A stretch of 64,000 bases of DNA from a virus. The stretch spans positions 32,001 to 96,000 of the IMG/VR virus record IMGVR_UViG_3300042090_002485. The stretch is one strand, 5' to 3'. Each line of letters opens with the position of its first letter. The stretch's first letter is position 1. Position numbers and translations under genes: made by a program. The notes beneath the pieces were generated by a model. It saw only the letters and a list, made by a program, of their open reading frames with translations, was not told the origin of the DNA and searched no databases. Positions 487 to 64,000 of this stretch are shown in pieces.

Positions 487-495
487 AATTATAGG
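487..495 (-). promoter_or_regulatory. Putative late -10-only promoter CCTATAATT (sheath)
   Basis: Same motif recurs upstream of at least 7 other minus-strand virion genes. Confidence 0.6.
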
Positions 496-3539: not shown

Positions 3540-3547
3540 AATTATAG
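3540..3547 (-). promoter_or_regulatory. Putative late promoter CTATAATT, leaderless spacing
   Basis: TATAAT, 6 nt, then ATG at 3534. Confidence 0.6.
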
Positions 3548-8465: not shown

Positions 8466-8475
8466 AAATGATAGG
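8466..8475 (-). promoter_or_regulatory. Putative late promoter CCTATCATTT (scaffold-capsid unit)
   Basis: Intergenic, 26 nt before the ATG at 8441. Confidence 0.6.
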
Positions 8476-18396: not shown

Positions 18397-18405
18397 AATG
18401 ATAGG
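18397..18405 (-). promoter_or_regulatory. Putative late promoter CCTATCATT
   Basis: Intergenic, upstream of the AGGAG SD and ATG at 18369. Confidence 0.6.
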
Positions 18406-18660: not shown

Positions 18661-19101
18661 TTAGAAGAGGCGTCCGACTGCGTGTCCGAGGCCGCGACCT
18701 AGCGCCATCCCGATCGGCGCGACAGCGAGTCCGCCTGCTTGACCGCCGTACATCATGCCCGCGAGACCGCCGATGCCGCCGAGCAGGCGCGCCGCGCGGC
18801 CCTGCTCGGGGTCGCTGTGCATCATGCCGGGAAGCGCAGCCAGCGTGCCGAGGGTGCCGATGCGGCCCAGCGTCTGGCGAACAGGTTGGCCGGGCAGCGT
18901 CGGCCACAGCACCTGGCGCGGGTGCAGCGCGCCGCCCGCGCGGAACGCGGCGGGCCCCTGCACGAACGCCTCCGGTCCCATGCCGACCAGGCCGAGGTTG
19001 CGTGCCGCGCTGATCCCGGTGTCAATGAGGTTGGCCTCCTTGAAGCCGAAGCGCGCGCGGGCTGCTGCCGCGCCCGCTTCGTGTGCACTGGCGATGGTCA
19101 T
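18661..19101 (-). CDS. Glycine-zipper protein with leader motif (146 aa)
   Basis: MTIASAHEAGAAAARARFGFKEAN; LLGGIGGLAGMMYGG and IGMALGRGLGHAVG. Confidence 0.6.
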   Translation of the reverse strand: MTIASAHEAGAAAARARFGFKEANLIDTGISAARNLGLVGMGPEAFVQGPAAFRAGGALHPRQVLWPTLPGQPVRQTLGRIGTLGTLAALPGMMHSDPEQGRAARLLGGIGGLAGMMYGGQAGGLAVAPIGMALGRGLGHAVGRLF

Positions 19102-20879
19102 CAGTAGCCTCCGTCCTGGCCGAGACCGAACTCGGCACCCGCGACGTACGCCGGCACCGGCGAGGCGCCGTGCAGGTTCGACACGTCGCCGCGGTGGATG
19201 CCCGCGAGCAGAGACTCCTTGAGGTAGCGGTGCGCCAGGCGCGCCATCCAGTCGGGGTTCAGCAGCGGCGTGCGCGACGCGGCGCGCATGACGGGCACCG
19301 CGCGGGGCCCGGTCGTCGCGATCGGCACTGACGTCACGCCGTGGCGCGTGAGCTGCTCGACCATCGGCGGCGTGATCATCGTGCCCGCGGTGTGGTGAAG
19401 CACGGTGTCGGCCAGGGTCTCGCCGACCGCGTCAGCCGTCGGTACGCGGCGCTTGTCGGCGGCGAGCGCGGCGTGGAAGCGGTTGTAGTCGATGACGTCG
19501 CCCTTGAGGAACGCGTCGTCTGGTCCGGGGTCGACGACCTGGACGTAGTTGAGCACGCTCTTCGCGAGCGTCTCGAGGTGGCGCTTGTCGACCTCGGAGC
19601 CTGAACGCTTGTAGACGTCGGCGAGCGCGTCGACGAGGTAGCGCCGGCCCTCGCCGAGGCCCTTGTGCTCGACGACCTCGTCGGGCTTGGGCACGCCGTC
19701 AGAGAGCTGGTCGCCGGCGTAGACCGACTGGCCCGGCGCGACGAGGACACGGTGCTCGGGCGCCACGTAGTGTCGGGTGTCCCCGACGGTGACGTAGTGC
19801 CCGCCCTGTGGCGCGGCCTCGATGCCCTTGACCTCGCCATCGAGCCCGGCGAGCACTGCTTTGTGGGCGAACGACGACGGCACCTCGAGCAGCGAGCGCA
19901 CGCCCTTGATGCCCTCGAGTTTTTTCTCGTCGTCAGCGCGCGCGACGCGGCCGCCGTGCTTGGCGTTGAGGCTGAACTGCGTGAGCGGCTCGCTCAGCGC
20001 CTGCGCCGCGCGCACGCCGACGTTGGTGCCGATCGGGTGCAGACCACCCGCGGGCGCGAGACCCTGGCACTTCTGGCAGACGCCATGTGGCGCCTCGCAC
20101 GTCATTGGCGAGCGCACGGTGACGGTCTTGCCCTCGCGCGTCAGCTCCGACGCCAGTGCCGGCGTGACCAGGCGCCCGTCGGTGAGGTAGCGGTCGATGA
20201 CGTGCGGGTCCGACCCGAGCATCGCGATGCCGTTCTTGGTGCCGCAGTCTGGCGTCGTGATGAGCTGGTCGCCCATGTTGTTGACGAGGATCTTGGCGAG
20301 GTCGCCTGGCTCGACGACGGAGATGTTTGAGAGCACCGCGTTCACGCGCGCCTCGCCGCCGGCGACCCACGCATCGGCGGGCTTGAGCCCCTCGGAGAAG
20401 CTCCGGTCGATGAGCCACGGTACGACCTTGCCCTTCGAGTCGCGCACCATCACCGGCGCGCCGACCGCGCGCATCAGCTGCGCGGCGTTGCCGCGGCCGC
20501 CGGAGCGGACCATGTCGCCCATCGTGCCCGGGTGCTTCTTGGCGACGCCGAGCATCGCGTCGAAGCCCGCGGCGAGCGCCTTCTCCTTCTCGGCCGCGGT
20601 GCCGGCGCGGCGGAACGCGGCTGCGTGCGGGCCGAGCGCGGCGTCGCGCTCCTCGCGCTTGGGCGCGATGTCGTCCAGCCCGACCGAAATGCCGTCGAGC
20701 GTCGCGACCTCGTCGCCGACGCGCTTGAGCTTGGTGACAGCGTCGGGGTAGCCGCGCGGATCCTCCTTGGCGAGGCCGACGAGCAGCTCGTTGAGCGAGC
20801 CCTTCGTCAGCTCGCCGCGTCCGCGCCACTTCGGCGGCAGCGCGGAATCTACGAGGTGGCGACCGAGCGTGGTGGGCAC
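19101..20879 (-). CDS. rpoC: RNA polymerase beta' subunit, C-terminal half
   Basis: TTLGR start, GISVGLDDI, bridge helix (GLKPADAW...EPGDLAKILV), DCGT...RSPMTCEAPHGVCQKC zinc site, and trigger loop GVRAAQALSEPLTQFSLNAKHGG. Confidence 0.9.
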   Translation of the reverse strand: MPTTLGRHLVDSALPPKWRGRGELTKGSLNELLVGLAKEDPRGYPDAVTKLKRVGDEVATLDGISVGLDDIAPKREERDAALGPHAAAFRRAGTAAEKEKALAAGFDAMLGVAKKHPGTMGDMVRSGGRGNAAQLMRAVGAPVMVRDSKGKVVPWLIDRSFSEGLKPADAWVAGGEARVNAVLSNISVVEPGDLAKILVNNMGDQLITTPDCGTKNGIAMLGSDPHVIDRYLTDGRLVTPALASELTREGKTVTVRSPMTCEAPHGVCQKCQGLAPAGGLHPIGTNVGVRAAQALSEPLTQFSLNAKHGGRVARADDEKKLEGIKGVRSLLEVPSSFAHKAVLAGLDGEVKGIEAAPQGGHYVTVGDTRHYVAPEHRVLVAPGQSVYAGDQLSDGVPKPDEVVEHKGLGEGRRYLVDALADVYKRSGSEVDKRHLETLAKSVLNYVQVVDPGPDDAFLKGDVIDYNRFHAALAADKRRVPTADAVGETLADTVLHHTAGTMITPPMVEQLTRHGVTSVPIATTGPRAVPVMRAASRTPLLNPDWMARLAHRYLKESLLAGIHRGDVSNLHGASPVPAYVAGAEFGLGQDGGY

Positions 20880-21738: not shown

Positions 21739-21747
21739 AATTATAGG
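21739..21747 (-). promoter_or_regulatory. Putative late promoter CCTATAATT overlapping the endonuclease stop
   Basis: TATAAT, 5 nt, then GTG at 21734. Confidence 0.55.
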
Positions 21748-22376
21748 TGCTTGTGCTTGCGCCGTTGTTTCAAGCGCTGGTGCCAGGCGACCTGTCTTCG
21801 ATGTGCCGCTTCTGGGACGCGATGACCGGTGTCTCTCGTCAAGTACTGCGTCGCGCGGTCAGCCCATCCAGGCTGTTCGATATGACTTAGCGCTTGGTTG
21901 CATCCTCCACACAATGCACCACGTATCGCTCGTGTTTGATGGTCGTGGTCGACGTCAGTAGGTTTTTCATTACACAACGCACACGTGCCGTCTTGGCTCG
22001 TGATGATCGCGTCCCAGTGGCGCTGTGATATGCCCTTCGATGTAAAGCGTCCGTGTGCTTGTTTATCAGGTATGCAGGTCTTGCAATACTTCTGGTTTGG
22101 CGACGTTGGTACAAATGGGTCTGAGCATAGTTTGCAATTGCGCGGCGCGTGAACGCGTTTGCGTTCTTGTTCCTTTTCGACGCGTTTCGCTTCTTTCTTG
22201 GAGCGCCTTACGCCTTGGCGTCCTAGAAACGCTGCAATTGCTCCCTTGGGAATCTTGAACGCGCGGCTAAGTGTTAGCGGCGACTCCCCGTTCTTGTACT
22301 CACGCAGAACGCGACGGCCGATTTTGCTCCAGGCGATTTTGGTACCGTCACGCGCCGCGGATCTCGATCGGGTCAT
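21741..22376 (-). mobile_element. Free-standing endonuclease VII-type (His-Me finger) homing endonuclease
   Basis: CALCNEKPTDVDHDHQTRAIRGALCGGCNQAL, with an extra CKLC...CKTC. GC is clearly lower than the flanks, and the ORF overlaps the RNAP stop. Confidence 0.8.
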
Positions 22377-25300
22377 TCAGCGCGATCTCGCCGCGGTGAT
22401 AAGCCGCCATCGCCTCTTCCTGCGACGCGAAGTGCCGTGTCTTCTCGCGTGATGGCGCGCGGGTCGCGCGGTTAAGGCCCATCAGGCTCTCCATCTCGGG
22501 CGCGACGTTGAGCACGCCCGGCCGTTTGTCGGCGAAGATCATGCTCGACAGCGTCATCTTCTTGGCGTCTTCGACGCCGCCCGGCGTCACAGGCGCGTGG
22601 ATCTGCATCGCGTCGCCGTCGTAGTCGGCGTTGGTACCCTTCTCGGCGAATGGGTTGAGCTTGAGCGTCTTGCCGTCGACGACCTTGGGGTAGGCCGCGA
22701 TGATGTTGAAGCGGTGCAGCGATGGTGCGCGGTTGACCAGCACCGGACGTTCCTTGCTCTCGTTGAGCAGCTCCTGACGCGCGATCGGCGACTTGTCGTC
22801 GACCATCTTCTGCGCGTCAGTTGCGGCGTAGCCCCTGCGTACCAGCCGGCCAACGACGAACCGGCCGTACATTCGCCACAGCACACCCTCGGGAACTCCG
22901 ATTTCATCCATGTTGAGCGTAGGGTCAGGCGCAATCGTAGCACGGCCTGATACGTCTTGCTGTCTGCGCATTAATCTAGATTGGAAAAATCCACTACCTG
23001 GGCGTGTCCCCGTGATCGCCGCGATGTAGCCCTTGGCACCGCGCTTCTCCGCGCCGGGGCTGACCGGCTCGCCGACGCCAAACAGCGCGCCGACGGCGTC
23101 GTAGAGGTGGCGCCGCGGGTCAGCCAGCTCGGACTCGGGCAGCGTCTTCTTCGCCTCGCGCAGTTGGTCGCTGGCGAGGAACGCGTCCTTGTAGAGCAGG
23201 TTCGCGTCGCCGACCTGGAGGCGGCCGTCCTGCAGCGGCAGGATCGGGCGGATGACCGGCGGCGTCACCGGGACCTTCGTCAGGACGTAGGCGTTCGCCG
23301 GCTTGAGGTCGCGGTCCTTGAGTGCCTCGAGGTACTTGATCTGCTTGACGACGCCGTCGAGCGCGGGCCCGCGCGCGCGCCGCGACTCCTCGCGCAGCTC
23401 GGCGAGCTTGGCGTCCACGTCGATGTCGTCGAGCGCGCGCCGGAACCACTCGCCGCCGCGGCCGACACGCTCGGAGAACTCCTTCTGGGTCAGGCCGAGC
23501 AGGCGCCGCACCGGCTCCTCGAACACCGGGTTGACGATCGGCTCGTGCAGATCGACGTGCGACCACTTCGTGCCGGACATGCCGCCGGTGGTCGTCGGGT
23601 CGAACAGGCCGCCGGTCTCGGGGCGCAGGTCCTTGGCGCGAACGAGCTTGCTGGCGTCCTTGAGCGCGCCCGACGACATGCTCTTGATGTCGGCGTCGGT
23701 GAGCGGGCCGAGTGCGAGTCGCGAGCCGCTCTTGTCGACCTTGACGCCGGCCCCGGTGAGCATCGCGAGGAACTTGTCGTAGGCGAACGTGGTCTTGGGG
23801 GCGGGCGTGGGTAGGCCGAGCTGGACCGCGCGCCAGAACTCGTCACTGCGCTGACTCTTCACCGACGCGGCCTCGCGGAGGATGTTGCGGGCGTTGTGCG
23901 CGACCAATCCGTCAAATTCCATGCGGCCTAGCCCCTTGGCGCCGTCGTCGCCGCCGCGTGCTGGCTGCTGGTTGTAGTCGTAGCGCTCGGCGCCGTGCGC
24001 GGCCCAGTTGCTGTCCGTCGTCTTGAAGAGCTTGAGGATGTAGCTCTTGCCGACCACCACGTCGGGGATCTTCTTCCCTGTGATCGGATCGGACACGGTC
24101 TCCTTGTCCGTTAGCCCGTGTTCGGCGAGCAGCTTCTTGGCGTACTCTACATTGTCCCGTCCCGGGACGTACTGCGGTACGACGACGGGCTTGCCCGTCT
24201 TCTCGGCGACCTTGCCGAGCATCGTCTCTACGGTCTGCGCCGGGTTGATGCGCGATACGATGCCGGCCGACGTGAACAACAGGTCGACCGGTCGGCCGTC
24301 CTGGTCGTGGATCATCTGCTCGTCTGGGACGATCTTGGCGATGACCCCCTTGTTGCCGTAGCGGTTGCAGTTGCCGCACCAGGCGGGTTTGCCATTGCGG
24401 CGAACATACAGCACGTGCCCCGGCACGGTGAGGCAGTACACGGGTCGCGCGTAGTCTTCGATGAAGCCCTCTTCTTGCGCGTTCTGCTTCTTGGTGTGCC
24501 CGTGATTGATCTGCGGCTCGAGTTTCGTCGTCACGATGCTGACTTGGTAGAATGGACGCGCGTGGCTCGCCTTGCCCATGATCGTGACGGGGCCTCCCTC
24601 GTGGATCCGATCCACGTTGGCCGCCCAGCCCACGTGCAGGCAGAGGCGCTGGACGTCATCGGCTAGGCGTCGCGACACAGTGAAGTACGCGACGGGGCGC
24701 CCGCACGGCTTCGACGAGCCGTCTCCCCACATCAACCACTGGAACAGGATGCGCAACTGCGCTGGTGGCAGGTCGAAGACGTTGTCGGGGATGTACTTCT
24801 CGTGCGCGAGCCCGAATTGCGAGAAGTACGCGAGCAGTTGCTTGCCGTAGATTCTGATTTTCTCTGGTCCCGGATAGAACGCGATACCGGCGGCGCGCAG
24901 TGCGTCGATCAGCTGTTGTCGGTTGGGCTCGCGCGTCTGCGTGATGTCGATGCCGTACGTTCCGGGTTGGTCGAACGTATTTCCTTCGGAAAGGAATGCA
25001 CCGAGCAGCAGCAGGAACGTGTTCATCGGCATGCGCAGCGGTGGCAGCTCGCGGGTCCCGACACCGCCCTGCCCCGCGCGAACGGACATCGCGGGGAACT
25101 CGAATACGTCGACGTGCGTGCCCTGCCAGTTGCCGTTCTTCTTGAATTGGACGCGCTTGCCTGCAATCGCGTCGGCGCGCAGCAGCTCGAACTGATCGTG
25201 GTCGCGCCGCTTGACGTACATCTGGTGGTTGGCGGTGACTGCGAAGTCGACCTGTTGAGACCGCACCGCGTACATGCGCCCGCCGGTCGGGTAGGAGTGT

Positions 25301-27762
25301 GTGGCTTCTGGATTCGCGTAGGTGATTTGGTCGCCTTGAAGCGTGCAAACTTCGTCCTGTAGCGTCACGGCCGCGATCGGCTTCCACCCGCGACGCGTCA
25401 GAACTTCCGTCGCCTCGTCGAAGCAGAGCTTGTCCCCGATCTGCAGAGCCTCGGTCGTGCGCACCGACGCGGAGGCGCGATGCGGCGTCTTTGCGACGTC
25501 GACGACGTGCCCGGGCTGCTCGTGCGTCCAGCGCTCGACGACCTCCTCGAACGGCTTGACCAGCGACTTGGACAGCTTGCCGAGCAGCGCGGCGTCGCCG
25601 GTGACGCGGTTTGGGCGCACGCCGACGACGATTGGGTCGCCTTGGTGGAGAATCGCGCCGGGCTTCGCGACACCATCCTCGTCGAGGTTGGCGTACTGCG
25701 CGGCGGTGTACTTGTTGCCGAAGTAGGTCCGGTGCTTCTCGCGGCCGATTTCCGTCTCGCCGCTGCGCTCGACGCCGTGCTGGTACATGTGCTCGCTGAC
25801 GAGTTTGTCGGCGGCGCCCTGCGACACGACGATGCCATCGTTGGTGTTGAGGCCGCGGTAGGGCATGTACGCCACGCGCAGGTTGGTGCCGAGCGCGAGC
25901 GCACCGTCCTTGGTGAAGTTCGACTCGGCGAGCGGCTGGTCCTTCTCGACCTTGTCGCCGGCCTTCACCAGCAGCGTGTTGTGCAGCGCGGTCTTGGCCG
26001 CGAGCGGGAAGTCCTTGTCGTAGTGCAGCTTGTCGGGCGCCGCGGACGTCTTCTCGTCGTCGTGGCGGTCCGAGAGGTGGATGTAGTCGTCGTCGATCTT
26101 TGCCACGACGCCGGCGCGCCGCGCGGTCGGCACGACCTGCTTGACCATCTCGTGCTCGACCGAGACGCCGGGCTTCCACGACTCGACCTGCACGAGGGGC
26201 GCCTCGCGGTGGACGAGCGGCAGCGCCTGGCCCTGGTGCTTGCTGGCCATCAGCACGCGGTTGCCCTGGATGCCGTAGATGAGCGGCAGCAGGTTCGACG
26301 TCGGGCCGTAGAGGTCGGCGACGTGCTCGATCTGGTGCGTGACCTCGGACCCCGGGACCCTCTCGACCTTCCCTCGGTTCATCGCGTCGACCAGGCGACT
26401 CGCCTCGACGTTCTCGCCCGGGAACGCGACCACCGCCTTCTCCATGTCGGCGGCCTTGAGGAACGTCGACTTGCCCGTTCGCACGTCGCGGACGGGCGCG
26501 TAGAGGTTGCCCTTCTCGTCGCGGCGCGCGCCGATCGCGGCGCGCAGGTCGACGCCGATGGAGAAGCTCTCCGGTGACCGCGCCGGGTCGAGGATGCCCA
26601 TGTGGGTCGGGTGGACGTCGCGGGCCTCGAGTGGGATGGCGCGCTCCGACGGGATGGCGCCCTCGCCGAGCATCGTCACCTTCGACGCTTGGTCCATCAG
26701 CTCCATCGGGTTGATCTGCATCGGCACTGACGACAGCGACGTGCCGGTGAGCAGGCCGCGCACCGCGCCGGTGAACGGCCCGGCGGGCAGCGCCTTCTTG
26801 ACGTCGCCGCGCGCCGCGTCGAGCTTCCACCCCAGCTTGGTGCGCATCGCGCGGGCGCCGAGCTGGATGCGCTCCTTGACGAAGTCGTCCACCGAGTGGA
26901 GCGTCTTGAACGCGAGCGAGTCGCGGTCGTCGACGTCGGCCGCCGTCCGGTGGACGTCGAGCAGCTTCTTGCTGGCCGCGAGCATCGCGCTGGCCGACGC
27001 CTTGTCGTAGGGGTAGCCCAGCGTCTTGACGCAGACCTCTGGGTCCATGACGGTGTTGTCGAAGTAGTCGCGCAGCACGCGCGCCTTCTCGTCTTGCGTC
27101 GTCGCGGTCTGCTTCGCGGGGTGGACCAGCGTCGAGTACAGCTTGTCGACGTGTTTGTCCGGCGCCTTCCACGCGTCGCGGTTCATCTGTGCGATCTCGG
27201 AGCCCCACGCCGCCGCGATGTCCTGCTGCGGCACGCCGAGCGCGCGCAGCACGGGGTGCAGCGGAATCTTCGACGTGGTGTGTGAGGGCTGCATGTAGAG
27301 CAGGCCCTTCTCCGCGTCCATCGACACGCGGAAGTTCGCGCCGCGGGCGAGGTTGAACGTCGCTTCCAGCTCTTCGTTGCCGCGTCGGCGGACGTACGCG
27401 CCGGGCTTGGTACGCAGCTGGTTGGCGACCGAGTACTCCGTGCCGTCGACGATGAAGGTGTGGCGCGGCGTGAAGTACGGCAGCTGCATCAGCGTGAAGT
27501 CGCGCGCGGAGCTGACGGGCTGGCCCGCAGAGTCCTTGACGACGATGTCGCCACGGATGCGCTCGGACAGCGTGCGGCCCTCGAGCACGGCCGTCTTCTG
27601 CTCGCGCGATGAGAACTCGCGGGGCTCGACGCGGATGTTGGACAGCTCGAGCGTGTGCTTGCCCGCCTTGAGAGGGAACACCTGCGCGAGGGCCTCGGCC
27701 GCCTTCTTGCGGATGGCCTCGCGCCGGGTGGCAGCGTCTTCGATGACCGGGCGCAGGTTCAT
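22348..27762 (-). CDS. rpoBC: RNA polymerase beta fused to beta' N-terminal half (catalytic DPBB), containing an intein
   Basis: Beta motifs: LPYFTPRHTFIVDGTEYSVANQL, HPTHMGILDP, RVLMASKHQGQA, GDKL|CNRYGNKGVI, KGLGRMEFDGL. Beta' motifs: QDVSGRATIAP, VLVNRAPSLH, NADYDGD (22612-22632). Confidence 0.92.
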   Translation of the reverse strand: MNLRPVIEDAATRREAIRKKAAEALAQVFPLKAGKHTLELSNIRVEPREFSSREQKTAVLEGRTLSERIRGDIVVKDSAGQPVSSARDFTLMQLPYFTPRHTFIVDGTEYSVANQLRTKPGAYVRRRGNEELEATFNLARGANFRVSMDAEKGLLYMQPSHTTSKIPLHPVLRALGVPQQDIAAAWGSEIAQMNRDAWKAPDKHVDKLYSTLVHPAKQTATTQDEKARVLRDYFDNTVMDPEVCVKTLGYPYDKASASAMLAASKKLLDVHRTAADVDDRDSLAFKTLHSVDDFVKERIQLGARAMRTKLGWKLDAARGDVKKALPAGPFTGAVRGLLTGTSLSSVPMQINPMELMDQASKVTMLGEGAIPSERAIPLEARDVHPTHMGILDPARSPESFSIGVDLRAAIGARRDEKGNLYAPVRDVRTGKSTFLKAADMEKAVVAFPGENVEASRLVDAMNRGKVERVPGSEVTHQIEHVADLYGPTSNLLPLIYGIQGNRVLMASKHQGQALPLVHREAPLVQVESWKPGVSVEHEMVKQVVPTARRAGVVAKIDDDYIHLSDRHDDEKTSAAPDKLHYDKDFPLAAKTALHNTLLVKAGDKVEKDQPLAESNFTKDGALALGTNLRVAYMPYRGLNTNDGIVVSQGAADKLVSEHMYQHGVERSGETEIGREKHRTYFGNKYTAAQYANLDEDGVAKPGAILHQGDPIVVGVRPNRVTGDAALLGKLSKSLVKPFEEVVERWTHEQPGHVVDVAKTPHRASASVRTTEALQIGDKLCFDEATEVLTRRGWKPIAAVTLQDEVCTLQGDQITYANPEATHSYPTGGRMYAVRSQQVDFAVTANHQMYVKRRDHDQFELLRADAIAGKRVQFKKNGNWQGTHVDVFEFPAMSVRAGQGGVGTRELPPLRMPMNTFLLLLGAFLSEGNTFDQPGTYGIDITQTREPNRQQLIDALRAAGIAFYPGPEKIRIYGKQLLAYFSQFGLAHEKYIPDNVFDLPPAQLRILFQWLMWGDGSSKPCGRPVAYFTVSRRLADDVQRLCLHVGWAANVDRIHEGGPVTIMGKASHARPFYQVSIVTTKLEPQINHGHTKKQNAQEEGFIEDYARPVYCLTVPGHVLYVRRNGKPAWCGNCNRYGNKGVIAKIVPDEQMIHDQDGRPVDLLFTSAGIVSRINPAQTVETMLGKVAEKTGKPVVVPQYVPGRDNVEYAKKLLAEHGLTDKETVSDPITGKKIPDVVVGKSYILKLFKTTDSNWAAHGAERYDYNQQPARGGDDGAKGLGRMEFDGLVAHNARNILREAASVKSQRSDEFWRAVQLGLPTPAPKTTFAYDKFLAMLTGAGVKVDKSGSRLALGPLTDADIKSMSSGALKDASKLVRAKDLRPETGGLFDPTTTGGMSGTKWSHVDLHEPIVNPVFEEPVRRLLGLTQKEFSERVGRGGEWFRRALDDIDVDAKLAELREESRRARGPALDGVVKQIKYLEALKDRDLKPANAYVLTKVPVTPPVIRPILPLQDGRLQVGDANLLYKDAFLASDQLREAKKTLPESELADPRRHLYDAVGALFGVGEPVSPGAEKRGAKGYIAAITGTRPGSGFFQSRLMRRQQDVSGRATIAPDPTLNMDEIGVPEGVLWRMYGRFVVGRLVRRGYAATDAQKMVDDKSPIARQELLNESKERPVLVNRAPSLHRFNIIAAYPKVVDGKTLKLNPFAEKGTNADYDGDAMQIHAPVTPGGVEDAKKMTLSSMIFADKRPGVLNVAPEMESLMGLNRATRAPSREKTRHFASQEEAMAAYHRGEIALNDPIEIRGA
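24370..25425 (-). mobile_element. Intein (352 aa) with LAGLIDADG homing endonuclease in RNAP beta
   Basis: N-end CFDEATEVLTRRGW, block B TANH, LLGAFLSEGN and WLMWGDGS, C-end YCLTVP...CGN, +1 Cys. Removal restores GDKLCNRYGNKG. Confidence 0.9.
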
Positions 27763-31983: not shown

Positions 31984-32439
31984 ATGAAGATCGCCATCAC
32001 CTACGACAACGCTGACATCACTCGGCTCATCCGGCAGGACCTGGCACGCCAGGGTATTCGGGCCGCCGATTGCGCGGTGAGGTACAGCAAGGGCGTCGCG
32101 CATGTCGACGTAGAGGTGCAGCCAGATGACGACGTAGCCGCCGCGCCGCCAGTCGTTGTCGCGCCGTCGATCGAGCAGGCCGCCGCCCTGCCGCCGCGCA
32201 ACCTCGACGTCAACCTCGAGCGCGAACAGGAGCGCGAACAGGAGCGCGAGAGGATGCGTGAGCGGGAGGCCCGCCGCCAGCCGAACCTCGAGGCTATCGA
32301 GGGCGGCAACAACCCGGCTGACTTCTCGGATGTGATGCGCGCCTCGCGAAGCATCGAGCGTCAGGGCGGCGGGATGTTCCCGCCGAGCCAGCGCCAGTTG
32401 ATGGATGGCGAGTCCTTTGACCCGCCGGGAGACCGCTGA
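31984..32439 (+). CDS. Hypothetical protein (151 aa)
   Basis: MKIAITYDNAD..., with a GGAGG SD. Confidence 0.55.
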   Translation: MKIAITYDNADITRLIRQDLARQGIRAADCAVRYSKGVAHVDVEVQPDDDVAAAPPVVVAPSIEQAAALPPRNLDVNLEREQEREQERERMREREARRQPNLEAIEGGNNPADFSDVMRASRSIERQGGGMFPPSQRQLMDGESFDPPGDR

Positions 32440-34865: not shown

Positions 34866-35248
34866 ATCGCAACAAGCACACCTTTCAGTTCAGCGGCTCC
34901 GCCATCGCGGAGGCTGCTGGGCGCGAGGCCGAGTACCACGGCGTTCGCTTGGCGTGGTGGACCGCCGAACAAGACAAGGCGACCCGCGCAGCGAAAGAGA
35001 AGGGCATCGAGATCCGTGAGTACGATGTCACGGGCGGCAAGCGTGCCGAGATGGTGATCGACGCGACGCTGCAGGGGCGTCTCACCGAGTGCGCGAACAA
35101 GATCTACGCACACCGTAAGGCAGCCGAACAGTTCCGCATCGAGGCAGGTGCGTACGCCGCTAACCCGACACGTGTTTACGAACTAGACCCAGAGGATGTC
35201 GTCTACTTTCGCTTGGCGGGCCTCTCGGCCAGTCAGCGCGAGGACTAG
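34862..35248 (+). CDS. Hypothetical protein (128 aa)
   Basis: ATGA overlap; normal composition. Confidence 0.55.
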   Translation: MNRNKHTFQFSGSAIAEAAGREAEYHGVRLAWWTAEQDKATRAAKEKGIEIREYDVTGGKRAEMVIDATLQGRLTECANKIYAHRKAAEQFRIEAGAYAANPTRVYELDPEDVVYFRLAGLSASQRED

Positions 35249-36333
35249 CTGCCCATCGCCGCGAACACGGACATCGGTTCGATGACCATGCCGACATGCG
35301 AGTGCAGTTCGCCGCGGAGCCGGCGCATCGCCTCAGCTTGAATGCGACGGACACGCTCGGGCGGCAGCGCCATCGTGCGCGCCACGTCGTCGGGGGCAAC
35401 TAGTTCCCCCTCAGGCCCAAAGCTGCGCTCGATCACGGTGCGCTCGAGCAGCGGCAAGCTCGTCACCGCCCCCATCACCAATTCGCGGTGGAGCAGGCGC
35501 ATGCCCGAGACCTTGAGCTGGCGGACACGCTCGGAGCACATCTCCATCATCGACGCGATCTGCACCAGGTTGCGGGCCTCGTCCTTGACGCCGAAGCACA
35601 AGTTCAGGACGGTCTGCTCACGGATGGGCAGGCGCGCGATGGCCTCGCGGACCAGTCCGCGGAGGCGTTCGGCGTCGTAGCTTGCGGTCGGTTCGGCCTC
35701 GGGCAACTCGGGCGTGTTACGCGCTGCGTCGATCGGCGTTACGACGCCCTGCGGCAAGCCAGGTTCGCTGGCCGCCTCGAGCAGGCGGATCTGCTTCTCG
35801 ATGCGCTCGAGCGCTGGGCCCTTGGCGGCCTGAGCACGCTCGCGTAGCTTGGCGAGCTTGGCGTCGGCGTTCTCGGCGTGCTCGGCCACCTTCTCGGGGC
35901 CGTGCTCCTGTAACGCGGCGCGATGCTCGCGGGCTTGTCGGCGCTGCAGTTTGTGCTTGTGTGCTGGAACGTGGACCAGCGACGCCATTGTGTAGTCCTG
36001 GTTCGACATCTCCTCGTAGATCCACCAGCCGGCGTAGGTCAGGAAGCGGATGTATGGTTTGCGGTTGGTGTCGAACTTGTCGGCCGCTTTGAGGAGGCCC
36101 AGATTGCCCGCGGCGATGTAATCCTTCACCGCCTCGGGGTCCTTGGTCCGCTTGTGCGCCATCTTCACGACGAAGCGAAGGTGCGTCTTCACGATGGCGT
36201 CTCGCGCAGCGACGTCCTTCCGCAGCTGCCACCGGCGCAGGAGCTTGCGCTCTTCTCCAGGGTCATCCACGAGCGGCGCTCGGGCGATTTCGGCGTAATA
36301 CGCGGCCGATACGCGCTGTGCGTCATTGCCCAT
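35245..36333 (-). CDS. Sigma70-family RNA polymerase sigma factor with tandem duplicated region 4
   Basis: Region 2: ARDAIVKTHLRFVVKMA...GNLGLLKAADKFD...FLTYAGWWI. Two region-4 units: LPIREQTVL...SERVRQL and LPLLERTVI...PERVRRI. Confidence 0.85.
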   Translation of the reverse strand: MGNDAQRVSAAYYAEIARAPLVDDPGEERKLLRRWQLRKDVAARDAIVKTHLRFVVKMAHKRTKDPEAVKDYIAAGNLGLLKAADKFDTNRKPYIRFLTYAGWWIYEEMSNQDYTMASLVHVPAHKHKLQRRQAREHRAALQEHGPEKVAEHAENADAKLAKLRERAQAAKGPALERIEKQIRLLEAASEPGLPQGVVTPIDAARNTPELPEAEPTASYDAERLRGLVREAIARLPIREQTVLNLCFGVKDEARNLVQIASMMEMCSERVRQLKVSGMRLLHRELVMGAVTSLPLLERTVIERSFGPEGELVAPDDVARTMALPPERVRRIQAEAMRRLRGELHSHVGMVIEPMSVFAAMGS

Positions 36334-36513
36334 GCCTGGTCACAAGCTACCCCGGCACGGACGAGCAATCAAATAGTTCGATGGGGTTCTAGTGGTGGTC
36401 GTTCGATCCCCAGCCGCCCCTAGGGTCACGAAACTTTCAGGCGATGCTTGCCAAGCAAACATCGTCGTCGATAGGGTGGCCTTCCACCCATCATCATACA
36501 AAGGCATTTTGAC

Positions 36514-37563
36514 ATGAACGATACCGACACCACCGAGTCCCCCGAGACGCCCGAGACCACCGTTCTGGCAGCCCCCGCCGAGGTCAAGCCGGTCAAGGTC
36601 AAGCCGATCAAGCCTCACATGGGCTTGGCCGCAGCGCAGGCCGACCCGGTCGACCTCGAGAACGCCATCGTCACGCGCCGCGACAAGCTGTTCAGCCTCG
36701 CGGACGATCAGACGCTCCCCGAGCCGGTCCGCAAGGCGGTCGCGGACCTCGCGCGCGCGGCGTCGCCGACCAAGCCCGGCCTCGAGGAAGTGTTCACCTC
36801 TTGGAGGGCGCCGCGCCTGGTGATCCGCCAGCCGACCACGCGGTCGGAGGCGTGCCCGGACTCGGCGAAGAACGGCGACTTCTACTCGACCGCCGGCGAG
36901 ATCGTCACCAACCCGCTCGAGGTCATTCCGCTCTACTTCCACGAGGAGAACATCAACTTCGCCGACAACCAGAAGAACCCGATCTGCTCGTCGCCCGACG
37001 CCAAGCTGGGTTCGCCGTTCGGCGAGTGCCTGAAGTGCCCGCACCTGCCGTTCGGCAAGCAGAACAACGGCAAGGGTGACCAGGTGCAGACCCAGTGCAT
37101 CAACAACGGCGTATGCGTCGCGCTGACGGCTGACCTATCGCAGGTCTACGTCATCCAGTTCGGCAAGACGTCGCGCAGCGCTGGGCACCGACTGCTCCAG
37201 CTCGCCGGTGCCAAGACGCTGGTGTGGGCGCAGAGCTACAAGCTCAGCACCGAGAAGAAAACCAACGACTCGGGCATGTGGTGGTTCTACAAGGTCGCGG
37301 CGACTGGCACGAACACGCCGGCGCACGTCGGCAAGCTCGCCGAAGCGCTGTACTCGCTGTACGTCGCCGAGCGCCGGCTGATGCTGCACCACCACTACAG
37401 CCGCCCGGCGCAGGCGCCGCAGGCTGCGATCGAGGCGGAGGGCGAGTTCGCCGCCGGCGCGATCGAGGCCGGCCTCGCGGGTGAGGTGGGCATGGAGCCC
37501 AACTTCGACGAGGCGGCGCCCGCGAAGGCGCCGAGCGCGCGCGGCGCCAGCAAGCCGATGTAG
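36514..37563 (+). CDS. Putative single-stranded DNA-binding protein
   Basis: First gene of the replication cluster. Cys-containing core (CSSPD...CLKC...CINN), aromatic WWFY and an acidic C-terminal tail. Confidence 0.45.
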   Translation: MNDTDTTESPETPETTVLAAPAEVKPVKVKPIKPHMGLAAAQADPVDLENAIVTRRDKLFSLADDQTLPEPVRKAVADLARAASPTKPGLEEVFTSWRAPRLVIRQPTTRSEACPDSAKNGDFYSTAGEIVTNPLEVIPLYFHEENINFADNQKNPICSSPDAKLGSPFGECLKCPHLPFGKQNNGKGDQVQTQCINNGVCVALTADLSQVYVIQFGKTSRSAGHRLLQLAGAKTLVWAQSYKLSTEKKTNDSGMWWFYKVAATGTNTPAHVGKLAEALYSLYVAERRLMLHHHYSRPAQAPQAAIEAEGEFAAGAIEAGLAGEVGMEPNFDEAAPAKAPSARGASKPM

Positions 37564-52752: not shown

Positions 52753-52762
52753 AAATGATAGG
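52753..52762 (-). promoter_or_regulatory. Putative late promoter CCTATCATTT, leaderless spacing
   Basis: TATCAT, 6 nt, then ATG at 52748. Confidence 0.6.
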
Positions 52763-57608: not shown

Positions 57609-57617
57609 AATTATAGG
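57609..57617 (-). promoter_or_regulatory. Putative late promoter CCTATAATT
   Basis: Intergenic, upstream of the GTG at 57561. Confidence 0.55.
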
Positions 57618-60965: not shown

Positions 60966-63475
60966 AGTACGTCGTTCGAGAGCAGGTGGTTCCACACCCG
61001 CCGCACGCGGCCAACGTTCATGCTGTACGGGCCGCCCGTCGAGTTGGAGTACGTCTCGAAGAAGGGTTTGACGTCGGGGGTGCTCCACGTGACGCTGGCA
61101 AACGATGCCACGAGTGCGCCGTTGATGTAGCAACGCAGCTCCGCCTGGCCCGATGATAGGGCGGCCACGTTCGCGCCTTCGAACTCGAGCCGAACACGGT
61201 AGGTCGTGTTGGCGGTAACAGCAACGCCCGTGTCAGCGCTGCTGGTCACGCTATCAGCGACACCGAGGTCGAGGTTGGATTCGACCTGGAAGCGCCAGTT
61301 CGTGAGCGTATGGTCCCAGTAGATGCCAAACGCCTGCGCGTCCAACGTGTCATCGGTGACCATCGCGCGAAACACCGCGCCGTGGGCAGAGTCGTCAACG
61401 GCCACCGCTCGCAACATGAACTCGATGACATAGGTCGAGTTGTCGTCGAGCGTTTCGTTGTAGTTGATGGGCCGCACGAATGCGTAGCGGTTGATGCCGG
61501 TGCCAGATGACAGCGCGAGCGAGCGCTGCCGCAAGTTGGAATCGGTCGCTGTGCTGACTGTGATGAAGCCGTTGTTGCCGCCACCTGCGGCACTGACTTG
61601 GAGCGCCCAGCTGAGCGGCATCGAGATGTAGTCGATCTCGATCTGGTAGATGTCGGTCGAACCGCCAACGGAGCCGCTCACCGTCATCTGCAGGTTGAGC
61701 GAGTAGGTCGTGGCGTCGTAATACGCTGGCAGTGCGCCCGCGGACGGGGAAGTACCGAGCGAAAGCACGAAGGGGCTATTGCCGGTGCGGTGGTTGGCGA
61801 CGATCGTCGTCTGCGTGCCGCCGGTGTCGACGTTTTGCAGTGTGGCTGTGAATGTGCTCGTGGCGTCACCGGCCCCCCCGTAAACAGTCACGCCCGTGAT
61901 AAACGAACCATCAGGGATGCCGGCGAGCGCAAGGTCGTACGTTCCACCAGCACTCGGGCTGAAGATGAGCGCGGCGGGCGCTGTGTTCCACGCACCCGTG
62001 GTCCCCGAACCAACAGCGAAGGCCGCAGCCGACGGCGAGATCTTGACAGTGCGCGTCCGCAGCTCAGACCAGTCGTCATTGATCTCGGTGACCTGACCCA
62101 TCCGATAGCCGTTGTGGTCAACGAGCGACCGCGGACGCGTACCGAAGTCACGGTATGTCGCCAGTGGAACGACGTCGCTGTCCGCGAGCGGGCGTGGGTT
62201 ACGCGCAAGCTGCTCGAGCTTGGTGAGCTGCGCCGCGAGCGTGCCTGCGGTCAACCACGACGAGACCGTCGAGCCCTGAACCTTGCCGGTGCCGGTCGAG
62301 CCTGCGAGGTCAGAGACGATCTTGGACAGCTGCAGCTGAACGGTCGTCGCTGGGTTGGTGGTAGCGTCTGCCCAGGCAGGCCCACCTGCGTAGCTCACGC
62401 TCGCCGCGCTGACGGTGCCAAGGTTGACGGCGACGGCGCCGGCGGGCACGGTCACGCCGGTTGCGAACACCAGGTAGCCGTTGACCACCTTGCAGATCGG
62501 GATGGCGTTGACGAGCTTCTCGGGATGGACGCGGCTGTTGAAGAACGTGCCGACGGCAACGGCGGTGTTCGAGTTCTCCGGGATTGCCTGGCGGCGGCCA
62601 CCTGTCGACCCGGTGTCTGACACCATCACGTACTGCAGGCACAGCGCATCGCCCTCGGCCAGGGCCGAGCTGGGGTTGCCAGAGAAGAACGCCGCGAGGT
62701 TCGCCGGCGTGATGGTGTGGCCCTCGCCGTCGTAGTTGCCGGACATGAACTGCTTGGTCTGCGGCGCCAGAAGCAGGTCCGAGCCCGAGGCGCCGACCGC
62801 CAGCGCCGCCGATACGATAGGTGTGGTGTCGCCGACGGGGCCCGCGGGCGTGAGCGCGTTGAGCGCGTTGATCACGGTGGTCAACGTCGTCGAGCCCGTC
62901 GCCACGATGTGGATCGTGCGCTGGTACGTGGTCTCAGCGTCGAGCGTGCAGGAGAACGACGCGCCTGATGCCACATCGATGCTGATCTGGTCACCGTTGG
63001 CGTAGTTGCGGCGCAGCGACGTGACGACGATGCCCGCTGCAGGACCGGTCTTCTGCAGGCCGATCGTACCGAACACCGAGGCGACCGGTGGGATCGGCGG
63101 GGTCTGCGCCGACCCGGGGGTCAGCATCGGCATGAGGTAGAGGTTGTCGCTGATGACGGGGATGCCGCTGGCGGCCACCGTCGTACTGCCGGGCCAGGTG
63201 ATCAGGCCGGGACCCGCGAGGATCAGGTTGCGGTCAGCGTCGCGGAGGTACAGCGAGTCCTTGAAGGTGTTGCGGATCGCTTCGGAGCGCTGCCGGAGGC
63301 TCTGATCGCCGCTGGTGATGTGCGCCGAGTCGAGCGGCTGGCTGTCTTGCAGCGCGTTGATCGACGCGGCGTTGTTCTCGCCGGTGTCGCTGGCGGTGTT
63401 GACCGAGTAGTCGATGAACTGCTGTACGTCGCCAGGCATGGGGCCTCCGTTACGAGATGCGGTTGCGGTGGTCAA
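60962..63475 (-). CDS. Tail fibre/receptor-binding-type virion protein (start may be ATG at 63439)
   Basis: Thr/Ser/Gly-rich beta structure; C-terminal ConA/LamG-like segment (TGVAVTANTTYRVRLEF...YINGALV); lower GC in the distal half. Confidence 0.55.
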   Translation of the reverse strand: MTTATASRNGGPMPGDVQQFIDYSVNTASDTGENNAASINALQDSQPLDSAHITSGDQSLRQRSEAIRNTFKDSLYLRDADRNLILAGPGLITWPGSTTVAASGIPVISDNLYLMPMLTPGSAQTPPIPPVASVFGTIGLQKTGPAAGIVVTSLRRNYANGDQISIDVASGASFSCTLDAETTYQRTIHIVATGSTTLTTVINALNALTPAGPVGDTTPIVSAALAVGASGSDLLLAPQTKQFMSGNYDGEGHTITPANLAAFFSGNPSSALAEGDALCLQYVMVSDTGSTGGRRQAIPENSNTAVAVGTFFNSRVHPEKLVNAIPICKVVNGYLVFATGVTVPAGAVAVNLGTVSAASVSYAGGPAWADATTNPATTVQLQLSKIVSDLAGSTGTGKVQGSTVSSWLTAGTLAAQLTKLEQLARNPRPLADSDVVPLATYRDFGTRPRSLVDHNGYRMGQVTEINDDWSELRTRTVKISPSAAAFAVGSGTTGAWNTAPAALIFSPSAGGTYDLALAGIPDGSFITGVTVYGGAGDATSTFTATLQNVDTGGTQTTIVANHRTGNSPFVLSLGTSPSAGALPAYYDATTYSLNLQMTVSGSVGGSTDIYQIEIDYISMPLSWALQVSAAGGGNNGFITVSTATDSNLRQRSLALSSGTGINRYAFVRPINYNETLDDNSTYVIEFMLRAVAVDDSAHGAVFRAMVTDDTLDAQAFGIYWDHTLTNWRFQVESNLDLGVADSVTSSADTGVAVTANTTYRVRLEFEGANVAALSSGQAELRCYINGALVASFASVTWSTPDVKPFFETYSNSTGGPYSMNVGRVRRVWNHLLSNDVL

Positions 63476-63562: not shown

Positions 63563-64000
63563 TTAGGGCGTCGCCGTGAAACTGATGGTCCAACTATAAT
63601 CTATGACAATTGCTGAGCTTTTCGCAATGCCGGGGTAGACCTGGTGCGCGAACAAGCGAGTGGTGCCTGGCGTGGTGCCTGGCGTGTCGCTGGTCGAGAA
63701 CGCGGTGCCGCCTGTGAACAGCCCCGCCTCGGTCAGCGTGTGGCCGTTGGCATCGCCAGATTCGAGCGTCGCGATGAAGCTGATCTCGCCCTGGGCGATG
63801 GTGACCTTGCCGACGTCGCCGAGCGCGACGCCGAACACGAACGCGCCGAGGTTGATGTCCGAGCGCGACGGCTGGTTGGTCGACGTACCCATGCGCATCG
63901 AGTAGATCGCGTCGCCGAGTGCGGTCGGGTCGGTCGCACGCTGCGCGATCAGCTCGACCAGGACGTCAGCGGCGAGGAAGGTGATCTTGTTGCGGATCGC
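63563..64000 (-). CDS. Baseplate/tail-fibre-proximal protein, C-terminal part (runs off the right edge)
   Basis: Open frame from 64000; FIATLE...LTEAGLF...LFAHQVYPGIAK...YSWTISF pattern. Confidence 0.6.
   Translation of the reverse strand, partial: AIRNKITFLAADVLVELIAQRATDPTALGDAIYSMRMGTSTNQPSRSDINLGAFVFGVALGDVGKVTIAQGEISFIATLESGDANGHTLTEAGLFTGGTAFSTSDTPGTTPGTTRLFAHQVYPGIAKSSAIVIDYSWTISFTATP

Follow-up and report, generated by a model that had tools for sequence, protein, structure and literature searches.

A phage sigma-70-family factor with two tandem copies of region 4, the second possibly an accessory module

The stretch of DNA analysed here, which we refer to as the window, comprises 64,000 nucleotides (positions 32,001 to 96,000) of the IMG/VR virus record IMGVR_UViG_3300042090_002485, and the subject of this report is a gene at window positions 35245-36333, on the minus strand, whose product is a sigma-70-family factor with two consecutive copies of region 4, called sigma-4a and sigma-4b in the following. 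The record is 145 kb long and estimated to be 77% complete; the same sigma protein also occurs on a 188-kb contig, and the phage, which is uncultured, is roughly 190 kb in size. Translation of 35248-36333 (minus strand) gives a protein of 362 amino acids (aa), and the G+C content at third codon positions is 0.85 in this gene, in a genome of 65% G+C, so that its codon statistics are those of a real gene. It is the sole minus-strand gene within a plus-strand replication module that includes two PD-(D/E)XK-type exonucleases and a primase. The parts of the gene, from the N-terminus of the protein onwards, and the adjoining intergenic region are listed here, with model confidence given as the predicted local distance difference test (pLDDT).

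35245-36333, minus strand: sigma factor gene, 362 codons and a stop codon (open reading frame list and translation)
36007-36192, minus strand: region 2, residues 48-109 (Pfam Sigma70_r2), including region 2.4, YAGWWIYEEM, at residues 100-109
35899-35982, minus strand: region 3.0 helix with K128, residues 118-145 (phmmer alignment to E. coli RpoS)
35764-35898, minus strand: helical insert found only in this clade, about 40 aa, where sigma region 3.1 would lie, residues 146-190
35668-35763, minus strand: region 3.2-like linker, residues 191-222, extended and of low pLDDT, its length conserved across the family
35488-35667, minus strand: first region 4 (sigma-4a), the family-type copy, residues 223-282 (Pfam, 37.2 bits; 104-120 bits with the region 4 profile of its own family)
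35296-35487, minus strand: second region 4 (sigma-4b), a diverged extra copy, residues 283-346 (Pfam, 31.0 bits)
35248-35295, minus strand: C-terminal tail, residues 347-362, collinear with the family tail, without (E/D)DAYL, pLDDT below 55
36334-36513: divergent intergenic region from the sigma gene to a 349-aa gene at 36514, with conserved blocks at 36443-36461 and 36368-36378 (five-phage alignment)

That the product is a phage sigma factor, as the original prediction had it, is borne out by Pfam matches to both Sigma70_r2 and Sigma70_r4 and by a fold like that of solved sigma factors. In particular, Sigma70_r2 is found at residues 48-109 with 37.2 bits (cut-off 24), the matching PHROG is 351, 'RNA polymerase sigma factor', and a Foldseek search with the AlphaFold model has sigma-S and sigma-A chains as its top matches (E = 5e-9, probability 1.00). 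Judged by these comparisons, the protein is an RpoS-like, group 2/3 member of the sigma-70 family, with predicted roles in core binding and promoter initiation. It is, by the same kind of evidence, not an RpoS orthologue, since the top NCBIfam model, RpoS (TIGR02394), is matched with 126.2 bits, far below the equivalog cut-off of 378.7. E. coli RpoS (PDB 5IPL) is the best match by NCBIfam, by PDB sequence and by fold, and also has the lysine that reads the C at promoter position -13, C(-13); the phage protein differs from it by adding a second region 4 and by having a reduced or odd region 3.1.

Two sigma-4 units 58 residues apart had been noticed from the letters alone, and they are indeed there, one beginning LPIREQ... 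at residue 235 (base 35631) and the other LPLLER... at residue 293 (base 35457). The proposed check by hidden Markov model came out in favour of both: scanning the full-length protein with Pfam yields two Sigma70_r4 matches, one at residues 231-281 and one at 292-340, and each copy lies above the threshold of 24.1 bits by itself when scanned apart (37.2 bits for residues 215-290 and 31.0 bits for residues 285-362). A six-frame scan of the genome returns the same two matches in the sigma gene. Two Sigma70_r4 matches are likewise obtained for the related proteins P0002 and P0003, and in a third relative, P0004, sigma-4b scores 22.4 bits, just under the Pfam cut-off. What is more, the architecture occurs in four protein clusters from separate assemblies, and it is for this reason not an assembly artefact. 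Elsewhere in the genome (G000:C1:120755-120988, outside the window), a stand-alone, 77-aa helix-turn-helix (HTH) protein of LuxR/GerE type reaches 24.7 bits with Sigma70_r4, barely above the cut-off; considered as a relative of sigma-4b, it was rejected as unrelated.

A search of 5.8 billion proteins gave several hundred relatives of this sigma, 117 of which were aligned. The second region 4 is absent in 113 of these, which are mostly about 262 residues long (a few have other N- or C-terminal extensions), and is found only in P0001-P0004, proteins of 361-362 residues with 76-77% mutual identity. In a tree built on the shared columns, these four form a clade with a support of 0.996, seven nodes deep, and being monophyletic and deeply nested, they have both sigma-4b and the insert at residues 146-190 as derived traits. 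This insert of about 40 residues is likewise confined, in the aligned family, to P0001-P0004. AlphaFold predicts helices in it at residues 146-154, 156-169 and 173-189, and it is collinear with region 3.1 of RpoS and SigA, with a similarity that is not significant alone. The possibility that it is a true region 3.1 was discarded: it has no Pfam match, and a PDB sequence search gave only E = 0.57 to SigA region 3, plus chance matches to apolipoprotein. The third trait of the clade is a loss. The ending (E/D)DAYL, or a close variant of it, which may bear a loose resemblance to the tails with which T4 gp33 and gp55 bind the clamp at their C-termini, is present in 64 of 105 family members and gone from all four. 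Two other members, P0023 and P0054, carry a different, Cys-rich and zinc-ribbon-like tail instead, which indicates that the C-terminal end of these proteins tolerates additions.

The closest comparison is with the sigmas of about 262 aa from related large phages with their own RNA polymerase (P0005-P0120). They are 60-69% identical to the present protein over regions 1.2, 2 and 3.0, the linker and sigma-4a, and share its region 2.4 string and K128, while their genomes share the promoter-like motif CTATMATT (M being A or C) discussed below; what sets them apart is a single region 4, the lack of the 3.1-position insert and, in most cases, the (E/D)DAYL end. In full-text searches of the literature, no account turned up of a sigma in which region 4 is present twice, in tandem or as a duplicate. 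More distant relatives are the sigmas of Salmonella phage Arash and of Vibrio phages D69, D148 and D181. In Arash, Gp10, annotated as sigma factor RpoS, is reported among the virion proteins, along with beta and beta-prime (PMC10585845); by analogy, this suggests that such sigmas work with the polymerase of the phage.

In agreement with the expectation that the second unit would be an HTH, AlphaFold predicts for sigma-4b the HTH fold of a sigma region 4, with pLDDT 90-97 and helices at residues 295-303, 314-321 and 325-347. In the model of the fragment 216-362 (predicted template modelling score 0.74), one long helix, residues 267-292, continues from the recognition helix of sigma-4a into sigma-4b, and the model suggests two units in a fixed arrangement rather than beads on a string. 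Compared with solved structures, the fragment matches single sigma-4 domains only (root-mean-square deviation 1.1-2.0 Å, and in the comparison with Z 9-10, 1.2-2.1 Å), and none resembling the whole tandem was found; several of the alignments also cover part of the last helix of sigma-4b, which stands where an ordinary region 4 has its terminal helix.

As for selection, the ratio of non-synonymous to synonymous change (pN/pS), measured against the gene L002 (P0004), is 0.42 for sigma-4b, with significantly fewer non-synonymous changes (Fisher p = 1e-4), and 0.39 for sigma-4a; for the insert it is 0.78, no different from neutral. Mean pairwise identity among the four proteins is 0.69 in sigma-4b, 0.82 in sigma-4a and 0.90 in the N-terminal part, which makes sigma-4b the fastest-evolving folded part of the protein. 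On these sequence comparisons sigma-4b is under constraint, yet more loosely than the rest of the protein, given that its identity is the lowest among the folded parts and that its score in P0004 lies under the cut-off.

The surface of sigma-4b is unlike that of a typical family member. Its net charge lies between -3 and +1 (+1 in P0001 and -3 to 0 in the relatives), as against +4 to +6 for sigma-4a (+4 in P0001) and a family mean of +4.4. The basic or polar residues R238, K250, R254, N255, Q258 and K274, each at least 95% conserved in region 4 of the family, are not kept in sigma-4b, and some are charge-reversed. Positions 326, 327 and 329, which we take to be those of sigma-70 E585, R586 and R588 that contact DNA, read E/E/E/A, R/R/H/C and R/Q/R/R in the four proteins. 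Within sigma-4a, R269 and Q272 are changed in three of the four clade proteins and conserved in 93% and 99%, respectively, of the other 113.

What these domains could read depends on the promoters, and the genome offers one recognisable class. The motif CTAT(A/C)AT, already pointed out in the original prediction, is real: it occurs 9 times in the window, compared with 1.4 expected, at the sites listed here in the longer form CCTAT(A/C)ATT.

488-494, minus strand: CCTAT(A/C)ATT motif site
3541-3547, minus strand: CCTAT(A/C)ATT motif site
8468-8474, minus strand: CCTAT(A/C)ATT motif site
18398-18404, minus strand: CCTAT(A/C)ATT motif site
21740-21746, minus strand: CCTAT(A/C)ATT motif site
52755-52761, minus strand: CCTAT(A/C)ATT motif site
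57610-57616, minus strand: CCTAT(A/C)ATT motif site
61153-61159, minus strand: CCTAT(A/C)ATT motif site
63594-63600, plus strand: CCTAT(A/C)ATT motif site

Promoter-like CCTATAATT sites occur in this genome, and the genome as a whole holds 13 CTAT(A/C)ATT-type sites, mostly before minus-strand structural operons. The motif consists of a -10 element only, with C at -13, resembles the RpoS consensus and is shared with the phages G001-G004, its orientation being strongly biased in line with the structural operons; the relatives with a single region 4 have it 11-14 times each, and the reversed control pattern 0 times. By position-wise information content, conservation at the 13 sites is confined to motif positions -1 to +8, and no -35 or further-upstream block was found at them, nor any k-mer shared between -90 and -9 beyond shuffled controls. 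In a k-mer enrichment of the genome and its upstream regions, CCTATMATT alone stands out, and the other enriched words, considered as promoter elements, proved to be coding repeats. Consequently, going by sequence, neither region 4 has anything to read at the sole recognised promoter class, and the motif can be accounted for without sigma-4b. The missing upstream element and the presence of the same motif in phages with a single region 4 give no reason to suggest that sigma-4b reads DNA at these sites.

The note of an unusual region 2.4 stands in part. The string YAGWWIYEEM is there as described, at residues 100-109, but it is no peculiarity of this protein, being found family-wide, relatives with a single region 4 included: in the 117 members, T99 and A101 never vary, and conservation is at least 90% at Y100, G102 and W104. 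The further idea that this altered region reads the C upstream of TAxxAT has given way to another. Namely, K128 aligns with chain residue 173 of 5IPL and 6UU8 (phmmer); an alignment of 18 sequences has it throughout, its conservation across the 117 is at least 90%, and RpoS K173 is reported to recognise C(-13) at RpoS promoters (PMC6719511). The conserved K128, rather than the altered region 2.4, would therefore be the simpler account of the C before TATAAT, and fits C(-13) better.

The partner of this sigma is presumably the multisubunit polymerase of the phage itself, which consists of two chains, encoded at 22348-27762 and 19101-20879, and whose long fused beta::beta-prime-N frame, the first of these, is confirmed. 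Neither this record nor a 100%-complete relative yielded a homologue of the alpha subunit. When the phages with two sigma-4 domains (this genome and G001) were compared with three relatives that have one, no clade-specific indel was seen in the large chain; its 47 clade-specific substitutions are scattered. The chain aligns to bacterial beta up to residue 720, which corresponds to about residue 891 of E. coli beta, and the segment that follows, TGDAALLGKLSK..., is identical in all five phages and, by comparison with the E. coli sequence, presumably stands at the position of the flap tip, the flap-tip segment being encoded at 25567-25599. As this segment is the same in all five, we infer that sigma-4a would find its expected docking site there in unaltered form. 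The same chain shows two further peculiarities: a stretch of 353 residues (24367-25425, residues 780-1132 of the 22348-27762 gene), absent in four relatives, interrupts the GDK...NRYGNKG sequence, and a hypervariable loop after ...IHL... in beta (about 26040-26065, residues ~566-575; L012) has EKTSA-like strings and, in G003, an insertion of 18 residues.

Where does the second region 4 come from? We consider it moderately likely, on sequence grounds, that an in-frame tandem duplication spanning 58 codons gave rise to it. Namely, sigma-4a and sigma-4b align without gaps over 61-64 residues, with 33-39% identity and an offset of exactly 58; the family profile of sigma-4 plus tail runs collinearly along sigma-4b and into the beginning of its tail, for 68-69 columns (34-44 bits); in the loci of relatives, sigma-4b matches solely their own sigma-4 and tail; and a pattern R-L-x-x-x-L-V/H is common to all three unit boundaries and could have guided unequal crossing-over. 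The two copies are in frame and adjacent, with no linker, and joined by the continuous predicted helix 267-292, and no separate sigma-4b-like gene was found beside the sigma of the relatives. A different origin, namely capture from another sigma gene (such as an RpoS-like gene of the host) by recombination at the end of region 4, is possible but on the doubtful side, and it is here that several results weigh against duplication. Sigma-4b scores 26-33 bits against the sigma-4a of the family, compared with 28.5 bits against region 4 of gamma-proteobacterial RpoS. Its best solved relatives are RpoS region 4, and those of sigma-4a are SigA/RpoD region 4; its recognition helix, ERVRRIQAEAMRRLR, is presumably closer to that of sigma-70 than is the helix of sigma-4a. 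Likewise, a few unrelated sigma-4 proteins outscore sigma-4a against sigma-4b (36-42 bits, up to 41.8, in a search of 1.84 billion representative proteins), and a domain tree of sigma-4 units placed sigma-4b outside the family rather than joining it to sigma-4a, with outgroups that had been preselected for likeness to sigma-4b and thus bias the tree. The same search brought up no donor that stands out, only the clade itself being strong (E = 3e-23) and the next best match beyond it reaching E = 1e-5. In addition, the junction is in exact register, and the sequence past sigma-4b continues as the family tail, which, along with the shared boundary pattern, fits capture poorly.

The explanation we propose for the whole is as follows. 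The four phages form a small, derived clade in which the second sigma-4 follows the first directly, without a linker; at the sigma-3.1 position the clade also gained its helical insert of about 40 aa, and (E/D)DAYL was lost from the C-terminus. Sigma-4a would sit on the flap tip of the polymerase at the -35 position, as in any sigma, since it is still basic, has the sequence typical of the family and is joined directly to the 3.2 linker. Sigma-4b, predicted to pack on sigma-4a, would come to lie just upstream of the -35 position and act as an accessory module for protein contact or regulation, and not as a second sequence-specific reader of promoters, the former role being favoured because its surface is non-basic and variable and no DNA element is visible. 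There is a loose precedent for such a role: sigmas of the ECF41/ECF42 type (of the extracytoplasmic function group) have an extra folded domain after region 4, with a presumed role in modulating the sigma rather than in promoter reading, their extension being a SnoaL-like or TPR (tetratricopeptide repeat) domain and that of the phage sigma another sigma-4. The architecture, its distribution in the clade, the selection and the predicted fold rest on computed results, and the docking geometry and the function are what we infer. To a duplicated sigma-4b kept as an accessory or regulatory module we would give about an even chance of being correct.

One can argue, as the original prediction did for one of the two units, that sigma-4b binds DNA, as a second reader of a -35-like or UP-like element upstream of that of sigma-4a. 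Such a reader might replace the missing alpha C-terminal domain, and the genome and its complete relatives do lack a detectable alpha; the HTH fold is confidently predicted, and attachment to the C-terminal end of the sigma-4a recognition helix would place sigma-4b upstream of -35. We nevertheless regard it as unlikely: the 13 CTATMATT sites have no conserved block upstream, relatives without sigma-4b have the same promoter-like sites, and, for the promoter class seen, the low charge, the reversals at conserved basic positions and the variation of the contact positions among the four relatives also speak against a sequence-specific -35 reader. A less demanding variant starts from what is known in bacteria, where the alpha C-terminal domain and class II activators touch sigma-4 just upstream of -35. 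Sigma-4b might then be a built-in upstream module for a polymerase without alpha, either gripping upstream DNA non-specifically or recruiting a second partner, which could be a phage regulator or the flap of the host core; this, too, seems improbable to us. If it were true, one sigma would carry its own activator function, an undescribed wiring of promoter strength or polymerase choice into the sigma itself.

It had also been suggested that the two units serve the phage and the host core enzymes. In this case sigma-4b would be a second flap-docking module, with which the sigma engages either the phage polymerase or the host core, or tethers or sequesters the latter. The conserved helix at the flap-tip position of the phage polymerase would be in keeping with it, as would the likeness of sigma-4b to region 4 of gamma-proteobacterial RpoS (28.5 bits, compared with 14-17 for sigma-4a), but the relatives with a single sigma-4 manage with the same polymerase and promoters, and the fragment model packs sigma-4b on sigma-4a instead of leaving it free, so that we think it very unlikely. 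Could sigma-4b, finally, be a functionless leftover of a recent duplication, drifting to loss? Its rapid evolution, its score under the cut-off in P0004 and the nearly neutral evolution of the co-gained insert would agree with this. Against it stand the significant deficit of non-synonymous changes, a reading frame that has stayed intact in four lineages with differences at about 46% of their synonymous sites, the invariance of the hydrophobic core and of 30 out of 58 positions, and the confident predicted fold, which together leave a leftover distinctly improbable.

That said, the accessory role has points against it as well. The predicted packing of sigma-4b on sigma-4a comes from a monomer model, and the selection estimate comes from one gene pair, this gene and L002. 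The sigma-4b of P0001 keeps E326, R327 and R329 at the DNA-contact positions, and some contact with DNA is therefore possible. Other promoter classes (early or middle) were not found in the genome, and such promoters could carry an upstream element. What is more, the clade has four members, which makes its conservation statistics thin, and all the phages are uncultured.

Sigma factors are among the best understood proteins of transcription, and their plan of one region 2 and one region 4 is treated as fixed. A second region 4 that is under selection, in a phage with its own sigma-dependent multisubunit polymerase, is in this sense an experiment of nature on the uses of an extra sigma-4, be it regulation, partner recruitment or contact with upstream DNA. 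The practical value is modest until a member of this small, uncultured clade has been expressed and assayed.

The region around the gene and other parts of the genome yielded some minor observations. In the divergent intergenic region, the block at 36443-36461, conserved in five phages, reads GATGCTTGCCAAGCAAACA and contains the near-palindrome TTGNCAA, and the block at 36368-36378, conserved in the same number of phages, reads AACTATTTGAT on the minus strand and lies about 40 nt before the start of the sigma gene; these are candidates for an operator and for the promoter of the sigma gene itself. A site of the form TTGCCA-N17-TAGGGT precedes the gene at 36514, in one instance only. Outside the window, a periodic array at G000:C1:142900-144900 has GCAG(C/G)GTCTC every 63 or 126 nt, and this 63-nt periodicity probably reflects a protein with 21-residue repeats encoded on the other strand. 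Also outside the window, CACGCACGT(CAC) recurs 19 times within G000:C1:116000-141500, mostly on the opposite strand of small plus-strand genes, and looks like a coding motif with a Cys, shared by a family of small early proteins, rather than a regulatory site.

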